Positions 20,102-62,215 of a stretch of 64,000 nt of DNA are shown in pieces (position 1 is the first letter of the stretch; each line of letters starts with the position of its first letter). Source of the DNA: Eubacteriales bacterium (lineage in GTDB: Bacteria; Bacillota; Clostridia; Oscillospirales; CAG-272). Made by a program: the position numbers and the translations under genes. The stretch is taken from NCBI GenBank assembly GCA_045658925.1, contig JAZOVV010000072.1, forward strand, positions 17,280 to 81,279, written 5' to 3'. Below the pieces are notes generated by a model that saw only the letters and a program-made list of their open reading frames with translations, did not search any database and was not told the DNA's origin.

Positions 20102-20130
20102 CGGAGGCTGTCGCTAGGCGACAGCCTCCG
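20102..20130. other. 13-bp perfect hairpin without a T-run (after the permease gene)
   Basis: CGGAGGCTGTCGC-TAG-GCGACAGCCTCCG. Confidence 0.4.
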
Positions 20131-24431: not shown

Positions 24432-24459
24432 AAAAAGGCACCCACGCGGGTGCCTTTTT
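24432..24459. terminator. bidirectional terminator (AAAAAGGCACCC-ACGC-GGGTGCCTTTTT)
   Basis: 12-bp stem with A/T runs on both sides, between convergent genes. Confidence 0.75.
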
Positions 24460-54982: not shown

Positions 54983-55006
54983 AAAAGGCACCCTGCTGGG
55001 TGCCTT
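54983..55006 (-). terminator. terminator after the 139-aa gene (AAAAGGCACCC-TGCT-GGGTGCCTT)
   Basis: The hairpin is followed on the minus strand by TTTTCGTTTTGGTT. Confidence 0.65.
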
Positions 55007-57200: not shown

Positions 57201-58721
57201 ATGCCAAGTTTTCAAATGAACCAAGATATGACCTATGAGGCGTCGCCGATTGTCAAGAACAACGTGTTCCTCTCGATGCCTCCCGAAGAGAAGGCTCTAC
57301 CCAAATATGAAGAAATCGCACATTTGCTCCCCGCCCCCATTTGGCGCGGCCGCGATGACGTGCTTGCCTGCTATGACTATGCGTGGCGCACGGCATTTGG
57401 CAATCTCAAATCCGCCAACGGTGAGTTCCATTTTGTCTCGAATTTTATCGACACCGCGTTTAACGGATACCTCTTTATGTGGGATTCTTCATTTATCGTG
57501 ATGTTTGGCAAATACGGCGCACGTGCCTTCAATTTTCAAAAAACGCTCGACAACTTCTACTCGCACCAACACAAGGACGGCTTTATTTGCCGCGAGCTTT
57601 GCGAATATCGCGCAAGCGAGCATTTTTCAAGACACGACCCCTCCTCCACAGGCCCCAACATTCTCGGTTGGTCGGAGTGGGAATACTACTCCCAAACAGG
57701 TGACGTAGAACGTCTTAAGCAGATTTTTGACCCGCTTCTTGCATACCATCTGTGGCTGAAAGAGTACCGCACCTGGCGCGACGGCACCTATTGGTCGACG
57801 GGTTGGGGCTGCGGAATGGACAATATGCCCCGCTTTGAATCAAGCTACAACGTTGCGTTCTCGCACGGTCACATGGTTTGGGTAGATGCTTGCATTCAGC
57901 AGGTTCTCTCGGCAAAAATTCTCATTCAAATTGCAGACATCATCGGTCGTTCCGATGACGAAAACATTGCCGTTCTCAAAGAAGAGGTCGCAAATTTGAC
58001 CTCTGTTATCAATGACAAGCTCTGGCACGAGGACGATGCCTTCTACTACGACCTTTGGAAGAACGGAGAGCTCAACAAGGTAAAGTCGGTTGGCTCGTAT
58101 TGGGCGCTGCTTGCGGACATCATTCCGCCCGAGCGTCTTGAACGCTTTGTGGCACACCTCGATAACGAAAATGAGTTCAAACGCCCCTGCCGTGTTCCCT
58201 CTCTTTCGGCAGACACCCCCGATTACAGTCCGCAGGGCAGATATTGGAAGGGCAGCGTTTGGGCACCCACCAACTATATGGTGCTCAAGGGACTTGAAAA
58301 GAACGGCTACCACGCGCTCGCCTACGATATTGCGCGAAATTGCCTGGAAAACGTGGTAACGGTGTTCCAAAACGACGGAACCATCTACGAAAACTACATG
58401 CCCGAACAGCCCTCGAAGGGCGCGCCCGCAAAACCGAATTTTGTGGGATGGTCGGGACTCTTCCCCATCAGCATTCTTTTCGAATACGTATTCGGCATTC
58501 GCCCGAACGCAAGGGAAGAAAAAATTGTTTGGGATGTTCGTCTGCTCGAAGAGCACGGCGTGAAGAATTACCCCCTTGGCAATCTTTCGGTAGATTTGCT
58601 CTGCAAAGAAAGAACGTCCGCCGACGAAGAACCCACAGTCACCGCAATTTGCGAAAAACCGATTGAAATTGAAATTCGTTACGGAAGCAAATCAAAAATC
58701 ATTACCGCAACCCAAAAATAA
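57201..58721 (+). CDS. (alpha/alpha)6-barrel glycoside hydrolase, GH63/trehalase-like
   Basis: 506 aa. GWGCGMDNMPR, YWKGSVWAPTNYMVLKGL motifs. No signal peptide. Confidence 0.6.
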   Translation: MPSFQMNQDMTYEASPIVKNNVFLSMPPEEKALPKYEEIAHLLPAPIWRGRDDVLACYDYAWRTAFGNLKSANGEFHFVSNFIDTAFNGYLFMWDSSFIVMFGKYGARAFNFQKTLDNFYSHQHKDGFICRELCEYRASEHFSRHDPSSTGPNILGWSEWEYYSQTGDVERLKQIFDPLLAYHLWLKEYRTWRDGTYWSTGWGCGMDNMPRFESSYNVAFSHGHMVWVDACIQQVLSAKILIQIADIIGRSDDENIAVLKEEVANLTSVINDKLWHEDDAFYYDLWKNGELNKVKSVGSYWALLADIIPPERLERFVAHLDNENEFKRPCRVPSLSADTPDYSPQGRYWKGSVWAPTNYMVLKGLEKNGYHALAYDIARNCLENVVTVFQNDGTIYENYMPEQPSKGAPAKPNFVGWSGLFPISILFEYVFGIRPNAREEKIVWDVRLLEEHGVKNYPLGNLSVDLLCKERTSADEEPTVTAICEKPIEIEIRYGSKSKIITATQK

Positions 58722-58726
58722 TACGC

Positions 58727-58752
58727 AAAAGGCACCCATTCGGGTGCCTTTT
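58727..58752 (+). terminator. terminator AAAAGGCACCC-ATTC-GGGTGCCTTTT
   Basis: 11-bp stem followed by CTCGTTTTTT. Confidence 0.75.
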
Positions 58753-58790
58753 CTCGTTTTTTGCATATCCTGAAAAAAGAGCAAAAAATA

Positions 58791-58831
58791 TTGTCAACAT
58801 AGTTGACAAACATCGACACTTGTGATAAAAT
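58791..58831 (+). promoter_or_regulatory. promoter (TTGACA-17-TAAAAT) with an 8-3-8 palindrome covering the -35
   Basis: TTGTCAAC-ATA-GTTGACAA (58791-58809). The -10 lies at 58826-31. Confidence 0.6.
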
Positions 58832-58836
58832 TTGTG

Positions 58837-58873
58837 GGTGCGCGCGAAGAACGCTTCGGTCGCACCATTTTTT
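58837..58873 (+). promoter_or_regulatory. leader hairpin + T6 directly upstream of the RBS of the ArsB/NhaD-family gene
   Basis: GGTGCG..(GAAG-AACG-CTTC)..CGCACC-ATTTTTT. Confidence 0.45.
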
Positions 58874-58892
58874 CGGCTTTGTGAGGCGTATT

Positions 58893-60185
58893 ATGGCTCT
58901 TTCTATCATCATCAGTACCGCAACATGTCTTGCTATGATTTTGGCGGTGCTCTTTTATCCAAAAATCAATATTGGGCGCGTTTCAATGAGCTCCTATTGG
59001 GTGGTCACCCTTGCGGGGGCAATTCTCTTGCTCCTCACGGGCGCGGTCGAACTCCCGCGCGTAATTTCCGCGCTCTTGGCAGATACGGCAATCAATCCCC
59101 TCAAAATTTTGGTGCTCTTTATTTCGATGACCTTGCTTTCCATCTACTTGGATGAGCTCGGCTTCTTTCGCTATTTGGCAAGCGCGACTCTCAAGCGCGC
59201 GGGATGCAGTCAAACGCGCTTGTTCTTCATTCTTTACATAACGGTGTCGATTTTAACGGTGTTTACCTCGAATGATATTATTATTCTTTCTTTCACACCG
59301 TTCATTTGTTATTTTGCAAAAAGCGCGAACGTCAACCCGATTCCCTACCTTGCTGCGGAGTTTGTTGCCGCCAACACCTGGAGCATGGCACTCATCATCG
59401 GCAACCCCACCAACATTTATTTGGTGACCGCCGCTGGCGGCGATTTTGTCTCCTATTTGGTAACGATGCTCTTCCCCACCCTCATTTCGGGAACGGTTGC
59501 ATTCTTCTGCTTGCATCTCGCTTTTCACAAAAAGCTCTCAAAGCCCATTGAGGCACAGCCCGAAGAGGTCAAAATTGACGACCATCTGTCTTTGCTTGTT
59601 GGCATCATCCACCTCGCGGTGTGCACTGTCCTCTTGGCGGTCGGCTCTTACATCGGCTTGCAGATGTGGCTCGTGGCTTTCGTTTCGGCAATCAGCCTTT
59701 TGACCTTTACTGTCATTATCTCTCTTGTTCGCAAAGAAGCCCCCGTTCATACGGTGGCGAGCCTGAGACGTGCACCGTGGGAGCTTATCCCCTTTATCCT
59801 CTCGATGTTTGTGGTTGTGGAGTCTCTCCACGAAAACGGCGTGACCGATGCGCTTTATCACCTGCTCGATACGTCCGCTCCCATTTGGAGTTATGGCGTG
59901 ACGTCCTTTTTTGCGGCAAACCTCATCAACAACATTCCTATGAGCGTGTTGTATTCCGCCATTCTTTCGGGCGGTGCGGGAAAAGCCGCCGTATATGCCA
60001 CCGTTGTTGGCTCGAACCTTGGCGCGTGTCTTTCCCCCATCGGCGCCCTCGCGGGCATTATGTGGAGCTCTATCCTCAAAAAGCACAACCTCAAATTCGG
60101 ATATTTCGACTTTCTCAAAATCGGCATCGCTATTGCCATTCCCGCTCTTTTGGCGGCACTCGGTATGCTTGCTTTGATGTTTTAA
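58893..60185 (+). CDS. ArsB/NhaD-superfamily anion/ion permease
   Basis: Trimmed to the ATG at 58893 (GTGAGG RBS). …FTSNDIIILSFTPF…, …IGNPTNIYL…. Confidence 0.75.
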   Translation: MALSIIISTATCLAMILAVLFYPKINIGRVSMSSYWVVTLAGAILLLLTGAVELPRVISALLADTAINPLKILVLFISMTLLSIYLDELGFFRYLASATLKRAGCSQTRLFFILYITVSILTVFTSNDIIILSFTPFICYFAKSANVNPIPYLAAEFVAANTWSMALIIGNPTNIYLVTAAGGDFVSYLVTMLFPTLISGTVAFFCLHLAFHKKLSKPIEAQPEEVKIDDHLSLLVGIIHLAVCTVLLAVGSYIGLQMWLVAFVSAISLLTFTVIISLVRKEAPVHTVASLRRAPWELIPFILSMFVVVESLHENGVTDALYHLLDTSAPIWSYGVTSFFAANLINNIPMSVLYSAILSGGAGKAAVYATVVGSNLGACLSPIGALAGIMWSSILKKHNLKFGYFDFLKIGIAIAIPALLAALGMLALMF

Positions 60186-60192
60186 ATGATAG

Positions 60193-60218
60193 AAAAGGCA
60201 CCCACGTGGTGCCTTTTT
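60193..60218 (+). terminator. terminator AAAAGGCACC-CACGT-GGTGCCTTTT
   Basis: 10-bp stem followed by TGCGTTTTTT. Confidence 0.7.
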
Positions 60219-60287
60219 GCGTTTTTTGCGTATTGACAGCAATTCCATTTTGTGCTATACTGTAAACGAAAGCGAGGTGTTCAAAAT

Positions 60288-60617
60288 ATGAGAAAGACAA
60301 TTTGCATTATCAGTAATATCCTTTTATCCTATTTTTATATTTCCACCTCTTGGATGCTATCTCTTGCGGCACTCTTTTATATGACGGGTATTGGTTGGGA
60401 CCCCAATTCTCCTATTCAAATCTGTTGGACTCTGGGCTGCGGTCTAATTGCCCTGACTCCCATCTTTTGCATTTTGGGAATCGTTTTCTCGATTTTAGGG
60501 TGGAGAAAAGAACGATACATTCGCGCATTTCTCGTACAATTTTTGCCCTTTGCAACGCTTGCGCTGTCGGTTCTCTTCTTCTTGGTACCCATTTACTTAC
60601 TAAATATATTTGCATAA
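60288..60617 (+). CDS. small membrane protein, paralogue of 24483..24806
   Basis: Trimmed to the ATG at 60288 (GCGAGGTG RBS). 109 aa with shared motifs (see the paralogue). Confidence 0.6.
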   Translation: MRKTICIISNILLSYFYISTSWMLSLAALFYMTGIGWDPNSPIQICWTLGCGLIALTPIFCILGIVFSILGWRKERYIRAFLVQFLPFATLALSVLFFLVPIYLLNIFA

Positions 60618-60625
60618 ATCAAAAT

Positions 60626-60656
60626 AGCGAATGAGAAATGCTCATTCGCTGTTTTT
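60626..60656. terminator. bidirectional terminator
   Basis: AGCGAATGAG-AAATG-CTCATTCGCT-GTTTTTGTT. Confidence 0.7.
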
Positions 60657-60799
60657 GTTATATAGCTTTTATTCTGCGCGAATGGAGAAGCCCTCGGGCG
60701 CACGAAATTTGATGCAGAAGATGCAATCGACCTATCGTCGCCGTACAAAAGTACGGCAGAGAGGTCTAGTGCGGCTAAAAAGCCACACATAAAAACGAA

Positions 60800-60828
60800 G
60801 AAACCCGTCGGTTTTTTCGACGGGTTTC
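60800..60828. terminator. hairpin GAAACCCGTCG-GTTTTTT-CGACGGGTTTC (unit 1)
   Basis: 11-bp stem. T-rich 3' flank on the minus strand (TTCGTTTTTAT), weaker on the plus strand (AACCTTTTATT). Confidence 0.6.
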
Positions 60829-61019
60829 AACCTTTTATTGTGTGTTTAAAATTTTAACTGAATCCAAGTTGCCTGTCGGGTGTGGCTTTTGTTCTGCGCA
60901 AATGGAGAAGCCCTCGGGCGCACGAAATTTGATGCAGAAGATGCAATCGACCTATCGTCGCCGTACAAAGGTACGGCAGAGAGGTCGAGTGCGGCTAAAA
61001 AGCCACACATAAAAATGAA

Positions 61020-61048
61020 GAAACCCGTCGGTTTTTTCGACGGGTTTC
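61020..61048. terminator. identical hairpin (unit 2); likely pfkA terminator on the minus strand
   Basis: Same stem. Minus-strand flank is TTCATTTTTAT. Confidence 0.6.
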
Positions 61049-61138
61049 AACCTTTTATTGTGTGTTTAAAATCTCAAATAAATTCGAATTACCTTTTGTG
61101 TGTGGCTTTTGTTCTGCGCAAATTTCGAAAGCCCGAGA

Positions 61139-62215
61139 TTATCTAAAGCCGACGTGTCCGGCAACCTTGTAGAGATTTTCAATCTCCTCGCGGCGCTTTT
61201 GGCAAAGCAGCTTCATACCTTCAAGCTGTTCTGCACTAAAGCCGTCGAGGTCGCCCTCTTCGAGCTTGTTTTTATACATACGGTCTGCAATCAATGCAAA
61301 ATGAATATCAACAGGACGAACAAAACCGTCGAGCTCGCACATAACGACGTTGCCCTTGCCCTCTGCCAACAGTTCAACCGCTTTGACCGCCATATGCGCC
61401 GCTGTTGCACGGTCACGCATAGTAGGTCTGCCGCCGCGAACAACGTGAGAGAAGCGCGCGAATTTGGTTTCGACACCGGTCTCGGCTTCGATTTTCTTTG
61501 CAAAACCTTCCGCAAAACGTGTGCCGTCGGGGTTCATAACGCCTTCGGAAACAACAACAATCATACCTCTCTTGCCCATATCACGCAAGTGAGCAATCTT
61601 CTTGATGGCAGCTTCCTCATCGAAAGGAACCTCGGGAATGGCTACTGCAACTGCCGCACTTGCGATTGCCGCATAGAGTGCGATTTGTCCACAGTCGCGG
61701 CCCATAACCTCGACAACGTTGAGACGTGCGTGAGATTCGCAGGTGTCCTTGAGGTTGTCGATCATACGCAGAGTGGTGTTTGTGGAAGTATCCAAACCGA
61801 TGGTATAGTCGGTTGCGGTAATATCGTTATCAATGGTACCGGGAATACCGATAGAAGGAATGCCGAGCTTGCTCATTTCGGTTGCGCCGCGGAAGGTTCC
61901 GTCGCCACCGATACAGATGAGCGCATCAATGCCCTCTCTCTTGCAGGTTTCAACCGCTTGGAGTCTTACCTCGTGTTGCTTGAACTCAGGAAAACGGCTG
62001 GAATACAGACGGGTGCCGCCAACAGTCATAGCGTTGTTGAGCATTTGACGTGTCATGGGAACGATTTCGCCGTTGATGAGACCTGCATAACCGCCCATAA
62101 TGCCCACAACCTCAATGCCCATTTCGGTTGCACGGTTAAAAACTGCTTTTACACACGCGTTCATACCGGGAGCGTCGCCGCCCGATGTAAGAACGCCAAT
62201 CTTCTTAAATGCCAT
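61139..62215 (-). CDS. pfkA: ATP-dependent 6-phosphofructokinase
   Basis: Trimmed to the ATG at 62215 (GGGAGGAAAGG RBS). TSGGDAPGMNA, GGDGT, PGTIDND. Confidence 0.93.
   Translation of the reverse strand: MAFKKIGVLTSGGDAPGMNACVKAVFNRATEMGIEVVGIMGGYAGLINGEIVPMTRQMLNNAMTVGGTRLYSSRFPEFKQHEVRLQAVETCKREGIDALICIGGDGTFRGATEMSKLGIPSIGIPGTIDNDITATDYTIGLDTSTNTTLRMIDNLKDTCESHARLNVVEVMGRDCGQIALYAAIASAAVAVAIPEVPFDEEAAIKKIAHLRDMGKRGMIVVVSEGVMNPDGTRFAEGFAKKIEAETGVETKFARFSHVVRGGRPTMRDRATAAHMAVKAVELLAEGKGNVVMCELDGFVRPVDIHFALIADRMYKNKLEEGDLDGFSAEQLEGMKLLCQKRREEIENLYKVAGHVGFR

Follow-up and report, generated by a model that had tools for sequence, protein, structure and literature searches.

The repeated module downstream of pfkA in the window, as we call the whole 64-kb stretch of DNA analysed here, probably consists of two head-to-tail copies and a remnant of a non-autonomous repeat of about 220 bp. 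This repeat is of the MITE, SPRITE and REPIN kind, occupies the terminator slot behind genes of certain uncultured gut Clostridia and would serve there as a terminator, a reading to which we assign a probability of roughly 0.7. The safest statement is that these are members of a family of structured interspersed repeats that is undescribed so far and of a kind that is already known. A preliminary description of this DNA had taken the module for a locus-specific array of small RNAs behind pfkA; it proved to be one site of a dispersed, multi-copy family with inverted-repeat ends, and the unit is thus explained by a mobile-element match, an outcome that the preliminary description had itself envisaged.

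Tandem Repeats Finder placed the array at 60665-61123, with 2.1 copies, 93% matches, no indels and the exact period of 220 bp that had been proposed, and a second repeat search in the window aligned 60665-60884 with 60885-61104 at 93%. Recounting the differences between units 1 and 2 gave the same 7 of 192 as before over the first 192 positions, and 11 of 28 over the last 28. The array occupies the interval between an ORF for a 121-aa membrane protein (60252-60617, plus strand) and pfkA, the stop codon of which lies 4 nt beyond the right tip of unit 2, in agreement with the earlier placement of the array end just before that codon. The unit borders had to be redrawn. The starts previously given (60661, 60881 and 61101) do not coincide with the natural borders, 60696-60913 and 60916-61134, and the supposed truncated third unit (61101-61135) belongs to unit 2 as its normal right end. 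A profile built from 52 copies of the window type matched these two units only within the 64-kb window. To the left, the repeat is bordered by the terminator hairpin of the membrane-protein ORF, which lies outside the repeat and is conserved in the orthologous locus L126. The right-end remnant that follows, also present in L126, forms together with the left tip of unit 1 the hairpin that had been described earlier, and the G-to-A substitutions in unit 1 that had been offered as a strand clue sit in this degenerate remnant and carry no strand information. The coordinates of all features are collected in Table 1.

Table 1. Features of the repeat array and its borders at the pfkA locus (positions in the window).
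Feature	Position	Strand	Remarks
Terminator hairpin belonging to the membrane-protein ORF (121 aa) upstream	60621-60655	+	15-pair stem and T tract
Right-end remnant	60665-60693	+	29 nt (GCTTTTATTCTGCGC and tip GAATGGAGAAGCCC); precedes unit 1
Repeat unit 1, left tip to right tip	60696-60913	+	nhmmer profile match 60695-60913, E 1.4e-57; alignment A1
Left inverted repeat, unit 1	60696-60720	+	Equivalent of 60916-60940 in unit 2
P3 and hairpin, unit 1	60719-60776	+	Equivalent of 60939-60996 in unit 2
Central hairpin, unit 1	60800-60828	both	Predicted terminator
Repeat unit 2, left tip to right tip	60916-61134	+	nhmmer profile match 60915-61135, E 5e-61; alignment A1
Left inverted repeat, unit 2: variable tip GGGCGCACGAAATTT and GATGCAGAAG	60916-60940	+	Pairs with 61111-61134
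Helix P3 (60939-60952 with 60983-60996) around the GCCGTAC-AAAG-GTACGGC hairpin (60960-60977), unit 2	60939-60996	+	Best-conserved core
AAAAGCCAC, 5' strand of P1, unit 2	60998-61006	+	Pairs with GTGGCTTTT at 61102-61110, or at 60882-90 of the preceding unit
Central hairpin, bordered by A and T tracts, unit 2	61020-61048	both	Predicted Rho-independent terminator, 11-12-bp G+C-rich stem
-10-like box TGTGTTTAAAAT (61061-61072) and 28-nt segment, unit 2	61061-61100	+	Weakly conserved, drifting
Right end of unit 2: GTGGCTTTT (3' strand of P1), GTTCTGCGC and tip AAATTTCGAAAGCCC	61102-61134	+	97% identity to orthologue L126
pfkA (6-phosphofructokinase)	61139-62215	-	ORF; motif GVLTSGGDAPGMN; 86% nucleotide identity to the L126 orthologue

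Across the family, a single copy reads in a fixed order: a left tip of ~15 nt (often GGGGCTGTCTCAATTT), GATGCAGAAG, helix P3 around GCCGTAC-N4-GTACGGC, AAAAGCCAC, the central hairpin between its A and T tracts, a box rich in A/T, ~28 nt of weakly conserved sequence, GTGGCTTTT, GTTCTGCGC and the right tip. The element measures ~220 bp, and its ends are imperfect inverted repeats of ~25 nt, made of a variable tip and GATGCAGA on one side and of TCTGCGC and a tip on the other; single copies begin with GGGGCTG...GATGCAGAAG and finish with TTCTGCGC...CAGCCCC. The invariance of GATGCAGAAG, of the hairpin stem GCCGTAC/GTACGGCAG and of TTCTGCGC was imposed by the search patterns and does not count as evidence. 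Variability within the element is highest in the tips, yet inside each copy the right tip is complementary to the left one; tips that vary in this way are unusual for transposase-binding ends. The 28-nt segments, which had been described as non-conserved spacers, are homologous between copies (consensus TTTTAACTnAATTCGAGTTG...) and drift at about the neutral rate. Two candidate identities were rejected on these grounds: a variable 5' guide of the sgRNA or omega-RNA type, since the segments can be aligned from copy to copy and show no more than drift, and a CRISPR-like or guide array, in which the segments would be unrelated spacers.

Head-to-tail repetition involves whole units, with each right tip followed by the next left tip after 2-3 nt. 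Every array closes with a complete right end; where a partial copy leads, it is without exception truncated on its 5' side, the longer examples being those at L140, L135 and L156. A leading right end, as at pfkA, is found in about one-third of arrays, and about two-thirds of copies are single.

The family is large and comprises two subfamilies, arrays and mosaics. Scanning metagenome contigs with the pattern GATGCAGAAG, gap, GCCGTAC-N4-GTACGGC returned at least 120 related stretches, and relatives of the inner part of the element are joined to varied flanks in rumen and gut metagenomes and in metatranscriptome contigs. Among the metagenome matches listed, equal-coverage contigs of one sample carry copies at different places, and arrays of 2-3 units occur with periods of 216-226 bp. 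A second scan, of one genome per species and with a pattern fitted to the window subtype, gave 52 stretches from 24 assemblies; 2 were chance matches or of another type, which leaves ~50 copies in ~22 MAGs. All true matches belong to MAGs of uncultured Clostridia, Oscillospiraceae or 'Eubacteriales', which stem, where the source is recorded, either from the caecum of buffalo, goat and roe deer or from faeces. Up to five copies were sampled per MAG, for example in SIG686, either single or in arrays of 2-3. The window-type profile also matched the human-gut subfamily over its full length, with E values of 1e-15 to 1e-17.

Searches for a known identity or for a mobilising partner were negative. 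Rfam 15 gave nothing credible in the window at E ≤ 10, in line with the earlier failure to assign the element to a known RNA class, nothing in a human-type array at E ≤ 1, and nothing at the gathering score in six loci. Keyword searches of the literature found no description of the family, and plasmid and phage collections held no match to the element. In ~1.3 Mb of element-bearing loci there was no transposase, recombinase or other partner gene; 1343 ORFs from 172 loci clustered into housekeeping families only (ABC transporter, VanY-like, MATE, acyl-CoA ligase). The loci examined held no element ends around a different interior. With a view to the idea that the tips are arms of host terminators, solo hairpins with the master tips were sought in the MAG loci, and none was found there; one hairpin at 20104-20130 of the window has a similar stem. 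The GCCGTAC...GTACGGC hairpin has what we take to be a resemblance to domain V of group II introns, a candidate that was dropped for want of any Rfam Intron_gpII match.

Comparisons within and between genomes bear on how the family moves and how it is kept. Paralogues in one MAG, L141/L149 and L128/L166, are 96-100% identical in each segment, the drifting one included, save for 92% at the right end of L128/L166. Their flanks, at ~40% identity, are unrelated; judged by their sequences, the paralogues are recent copies. Exact-protein look-ups with pfkA (two start choices) and with two genes beside a young copy brought nothing new on strain polymorphism. At other places, the same site is filled across species-level MAGs, as in the window and L126, L134/L147, L152/L170, and L122/L135/L140. 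Such orthologous copies share 91-99% identity in the core and 86-100% in the central hairpin, the third codon positions of the flanking genes being 61-70% identical, and the segment made up of box and spacer is 72-78% identical in three orthologous pairs and 92-98% in two others. The pfkA site of L126 carries the remnant and one unit and that of the window two, which bears out the suggestion that copy number varies. Between these two loci identity is 98.7% over 60931-61009 and 72% over the box and 28-nt segment of unit 2, the latter value being comparable to that of third codon positions. The L126 spacer corresponds to the spacer of unit 1 in the window, and because that of unit 2 is more diverged, unit 2 would have arisen by a second insertion or an old duplication and not by recent slippage. 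All three units at the pfkA sites share a private double change in P3, from G:C to A:U, which argues for descent under constraint rather than homogenisation among paralogues. These comparisons show a family that is both mobile and under purifying selection.

The element is highly structured. One unit has a minimum free energy of -82.8 kcal/mol on the plus strand (z -7.6) and -75.6 kcal/mol on the minus strand (z -8.25), and on each strand none of 200 shuffles folded as well. The predicted structure contains the closing helix GTGGCTTTT/AAAAGCCAC, CGACCT...AGGTCG, GCCGTAC-N4-GTACGGC and a helix of TTCTGCGC...GATGCAGAA, so that every closing and nested helix of the preliminary description reappears in it; the 11-bp hairpin with its T-run was likewise recovered, with 11-12 bp, as a predicted terminator on both strands. 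The consensus of alignment A1 comprises P0, formed by the ends, P1 (AAAAGCCAC/GTGGCTTTT, around the central hairpin), P3, the GCCGTAC hairpin and the central hairpin. Four helices are maintained by compensatory changes among the 52 window-type copies, and the earlier expectation of a conserved fold thus holds across relatives. In this alignment 93.9% of cells are paired, a share that falls to 34-42% if the partners are shifted by 1-3 columns; both sides have changed in 31 of 57 pairs (12-20 with slid partners), the covariation score is 0.238 (0.04-0.07 with slid partners), and no shuffle among 500 reached any of the observed pairing values. P3 has changed on both sides in 8 of its 11 pairs, P1 is paired in 99.4% of cells with double changes in 5 of 9 pairs, and the stem of the central hairpin also covaries. 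Covariation of this kind is equally expected for a single-stranded DNA form of the element, and as a single strand the unit would adopt a compact four-helix fold bounded by the inverted repeats.

The two strands differ in what they do best. Consensus energies favour the plus strand in both subfamilies, with -45.0 versus -41.4 kcal/mol for the window type and -46.1 versus -31.0 kcal/mol for the human type, in line with the plus-strand reading that the preliminary description had considered. In the plus-strand reading, two U.G pairs stand at fixed positions or alternate with C.G, and among non-Watson-Crick cells G:T outnumbers A:C by 154 to 21, or by 65 to 21 when the two fixed pairs are left aside, counts that refer to a structure predicted from the plus strand. 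The plus strand is therefore favoured for the fold. The T tract behind the central hairpin, in contrast, is the better one on the minus strand, with 7.3 T per 12 nt against 4.35 on the plus strand and a longest T run of 4.3 against 2.9 (52 copies). With the fold better on one strand and the terminator better on the other, a single function does not account for both. The plus-strand fold may be recognised, as single-stranded DNA or as RNA, by a trans-acting enzyme; alternatively, it may act as a 3'-UTR structure for genes that enter from the left or, in tandem copies, as a genuine sRNA.

A more active role for this fold is conceivable but unlikely. P0, P1 and P3, together with the CGTC/AGAG internal loop that surrounds the GCCGTAC hairpin, may form an RNA or single-stranded DNA that steers its own copying into resident terminators, or the replacement of these, and a full transcription unit (box, right end, joined tips, core and terminator) would then exist only in tandem or circular forms. 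The related proposal that the elements are a family of sRNA genes we regard as improbable. In that case a plus-strand RNA of ~150-170 nt would start from the -10-like box, run through the right end, the tip hairpin and the core, and stop at the central hairpin, so that tandem copies would be paralogous sRNAs. The better plus-strand energies in both subfamilies, the fixed U.G pairs with the excess of G:T over A:C, and the purifying selection on the core are all consistent with such a gene, and box, full fold and terminator do stand in the correct order in tandem or remnant-led copies, about one-third of arrays. However, the single copies, about two-thirds of the total, lack the 5' half of the proposed RNA ahead of the core, and its plus-strand T tract is the weaker one. 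The -10-like box, which had been reported as conserved, has no conserved columns in the 52 copies of A1 and reads CGAAAT in L126, and the homology of the 28-nt segments leaves no variable seed. Rumen metatranscriptome contigs do contain related sequence, but these contigs are unstranded and extend into flanking genes. In them the element is joined to neighbouring genes, which shows that it is transcribed together with these.

The position of the copies relative to genes is in keeping with the terminator reading. By crude longest-ORF calls, arrays lie behind at least one gene 3' end in 38 of 42 window-type and 71 of 73 human-type cases and between divergent genes in 3 of 42 and 1 of 73, and in 26 of 42 and 58 of 73, respectively, the right end adjoins a gene of the opposite strand. 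The right end falls -8 to +5 nt from the stop codon in 15 of the 26 abutting window-type cases, with a modal distance of 0-5 nt. The neighbours are dozens of unrelated, ordinary housekeeping genes. As the right end usually faces an incoming gene, it is the better terminator that faces that gene. We infer that the central hairpin terminates transcription and that it is likely to have a host role for the adjacent gene: it would mainly end the gene that enters from the right, here pfkA, the transcript of which runs into the repeat at its right end, and would end a gene entering from the left less well.

One filled site, L158, could be compared with empty ones in three other species, where a plain bidirectional terminator (an A run, GGGTACTCTGCC-GTG-GGCAGAGTACCC and a T run) lies between the same convergent genes, exactly at the position of the element; the comparison concerns one site only, and the flanks of these species have diverged by 20-25%. 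Three copies of the SIG686/RGIG1710 subtype (L130, L139 and L142) are flanked on either side by the same host terminator hairpin of 22-25 nt. This points to terminators as probable targets of the element. The common subtype has no short direct target repeat, its left flank being A-rich and its right flank T-rich, the two hence inverted and not direct. These features could be explained by spread through recombination at terminator hairpins, with no DDE or HUH transposition, either by site-specific integration of a circular copy or by gene conversion via the A-run-GGG and CCC-T-run borders, arrays being Campbell-type products. The empty site has the same A-run-GGG...CCC-T-run frame, and such a route would fit the host hairpins flanking the three copies, the complete right end that closes every array behind 5'-truncated leading partials, the abutting of tips across 2-3 nt and the missing short target duplication. 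Nevertheless, no recombinase gene was seen near copies, the empty site is a single one with diverged flanks, and near-identical copies at unrelated sites have the same tips, which means that the tips travel with the element; overall, we consider this route quite improbable.

A cis-acting device specific to pfkA, whether a 3'-UTR stabiliser or an antisense transcript running from the outward-facing box into the 3' end of the gene, is very improbable. The element does adjoin the pfkA stop codon and is retained there in a second species, the box at 61061-61072 is directed into pfkA, and a plus-strand terminator-like site is present at 61245-61263. However, dozens of unrelated genes precede the same element, pfkA is found at the opposite side of an element in the human-gut subtype, and the box is not conserved. 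Least credible of all is an arginine-rich peptide (MQK...RRRT.VRQR...) encoded from an ATG within GATGCAGAAG, because, although the human-gut subtype has GGGGAGAG 9-10 nt upstream of the ATG and a 34-codon frame in 38 of 113 copies, and both window copies and L126 have 26-codon frames, the mini-ORF is no conserved feature of the family: 36 of 52 window-type copies have a stop at codon 5, frames range from 4 to >80 codons, 1-nt indels occur, the loop residue is S, I, G, C or N, and variation tracks base pairing rather than codons.

Good descriptions of small interspersed repeats exist for Proteobacteria, pneumococci and Neisseria; to our knowledge, there are hardly any for the uncultured Clostridia that prevail in the guts of ruminants and humans. 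The present family unites three traits that are usually studied separately, namely recent intragenomic spread, retention across species with a selected multi-helix core, and a built-in predicted terminator behind stop codons. It accounts for 'orphan structured RNAs' or 'odd intergenic palindromes' flagged by automated scans in these genomes, its copies will break MAG assemblies, and it can be used as a marker in strain typing. Should the core prove functional, the family would lend itself well to study, either as a repeat that has been domesticated into a terminator or 3'-UTR module or as an example of a new mode of movement. Were the fold to be active in the sense discussed above, this would be a mobile element that targets terminators and is mechanistically of a new type, or else an sRNA gene that is mobile, and in either case one that is widespread among the gut Clostridia of humans and ruminants.

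Among known systems, tandem paralogous sRNAs such as PrrF1/PrrF2 and LhrC1-5 are single-locus genes with conserved promoters. The array at pfkA resembles them in its near-identical structured units, placed head to tail with a terminator hairpin after each, and the family shares with stand-alone sRNAs a covarying structure. In contrast to these genes, the unit described here is dispersed behind unrelated genes, has no conserved promoter and is mostly single, without the 5' half.

The family is, like MITEs, shorter than ~300 bp, non-coding, multi-copy and dispersed, with terminal inverted repeats; the direct target-site duplication of MITEs was not found, and hairpin duplications of 22-25 nt occur only at the three SIG686-subtype copies. 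The pneumococcal BOX and RUP elements and Correia/ERIC-type MITEs are below 300 bp, fold tightly, have paired terminal inverted repeats and are co-transcribed with their neighbours; BOX is modular, with a tandemly repeated inner module, and both BOX and RUP have target duplications and ties to known IS families (PMC3049150; PMC10969869). The window family is similarly small, folded and co-transcribed, with ends that pair. Unlike BOX and RUP, it has no observed target duplication or IS tie, its tips are its least-conserved part, and whole units are repeated in tandem.

SPRITE is a small terminator-like interspersed repeat of pneumococcus and S. mitis only, an AT-rich element with one 18-bp duplex and a U tract and with borders of the AAAA/TTTT type, which is enriched near gene 3' ends and for which neither a target duplication nor a mobilising enzyme is established (PMC3049150). 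The stem and T tract of the predicted terminator, the AAAA/TTTT-type borders and the enrichment at the 3' ends of genes give the window family a likeness to SPRITE that concerns the way of working only. It differs in its length of ~220 bp, its four covarying helices, a conserved core that lies outside the terminator, its inverted-repeat ends and its host.

REPINs, which are mobilised by RAYT transposases, occur in Proteobacteria and are simple doublets in which a palindrome of ~25 nt with a head of the GTAG type is present twice; their inheritance is vertical, they persist for long at orthologous sites, and most of them do not adjoin the single-copy gene of their partner enzyme (PMC3116915; bioRxiv 10.1101/2021.07.10.451892). 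The window family is like them in being non-autonomous, hairpin-forming, extragenic and multi-copy, in the compensatory changes of its stems and in its long vertical persistence at orthologous sites. Instead of a doublet it has a multi-branch fold (P0, P1, P3 and two hairpins), and it combines a multi-helix core with an internal terminator. In behaviour, the elements closest to the family described here are SPRITE, BOX and RUP on the one hand and REPINs on the other.

Short forms of the repeat were found at two loci of the human-gut subfamily, L005 and L015, where internally deleted units of ~100 bp are without the central hairpin and spacer. The deletion junction in these units is a shared TTTTCGG word, and joining at this word indicates that recombination inside the element yields the short forms. 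We also observed a second unit type, which has its ends in common with the main, human-type unit and carries a different core (GATAAAATCGTTTGGAGTGTTCGATTTCG...GCGTAC-N4-GTACGT...CGAAATCGGGCGCAGAAAAAGCG). The two types alternate in mosaics and, among the loci with the second unit type, short right-end fragments of ~37 nt (TTTTCGGTCCGGACGATTTTAGCC...) are tandemly repeated as well. In the subtype carried by the SIG686 and RGIG1710 MAGs, a 30-nt palindrome, CAGTTTGTCGATAAACTTATCGACAAACTG, stands ahead of each copy, and three copies have an identical host terminator hairpin (22-25 nt) flanking the element on either side.

Unit types and hairpins by location
Feature	Location	Strand	Sequence or setting
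Second unit type	L003, L012, L013, L021, L036, L093, L102, L103 and others		right of human-type units
SIG686/RGIG1710 subtype	L130, L139, L142, L163, L167
Near-identical terminator hairpins, separate family	window 24432-24459, 54983-55006, 58727-58752, 60193-60218		AAAAGGCACCC-N4-GGGTGCCTTTT
Hairpin	window 20104-20130		GGAGGCTGTCGC-TAG-GCGACAGCCTCC; between two minus-strand genes
Terminator-like hairpin with T tract	window 61245-61263	+	antisense to pfkA

Within the window, the terminator hairpin family bears no sequence relation to the variable outermost tips of the repeat. The stem of the hairpin between two minus-strand genes resembles the commonest tip (GGGCTGTCGC...), and this hairpin may represent a tip pair standing alone or an empty target, or the likeness may be fortuitous. 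The terminator-like site antisense to pfkA lies ~110 nt inside the 3' end of the gene and may be due to chance.

The window carries an ArsB/NhaD-type transporter gene (58803-60185) that is missing from the orthologous pfkA locus L126, a clean gene-sized indel adjoining the repeat; window positions 58703-60262 correspond to L126 5039-5049, and the two loci are otherwise syntenic.

At another locus, L164 (2944-3490, 3494-3717), the element comes directly after a gene whose depth, summed over four rumen metatranscriptomes, is very high, in the thousands and drawn from many organisms. Across this element depth falls ~100-fold, and a 468-nt RNA contig covers the element together with the start of the next gene.
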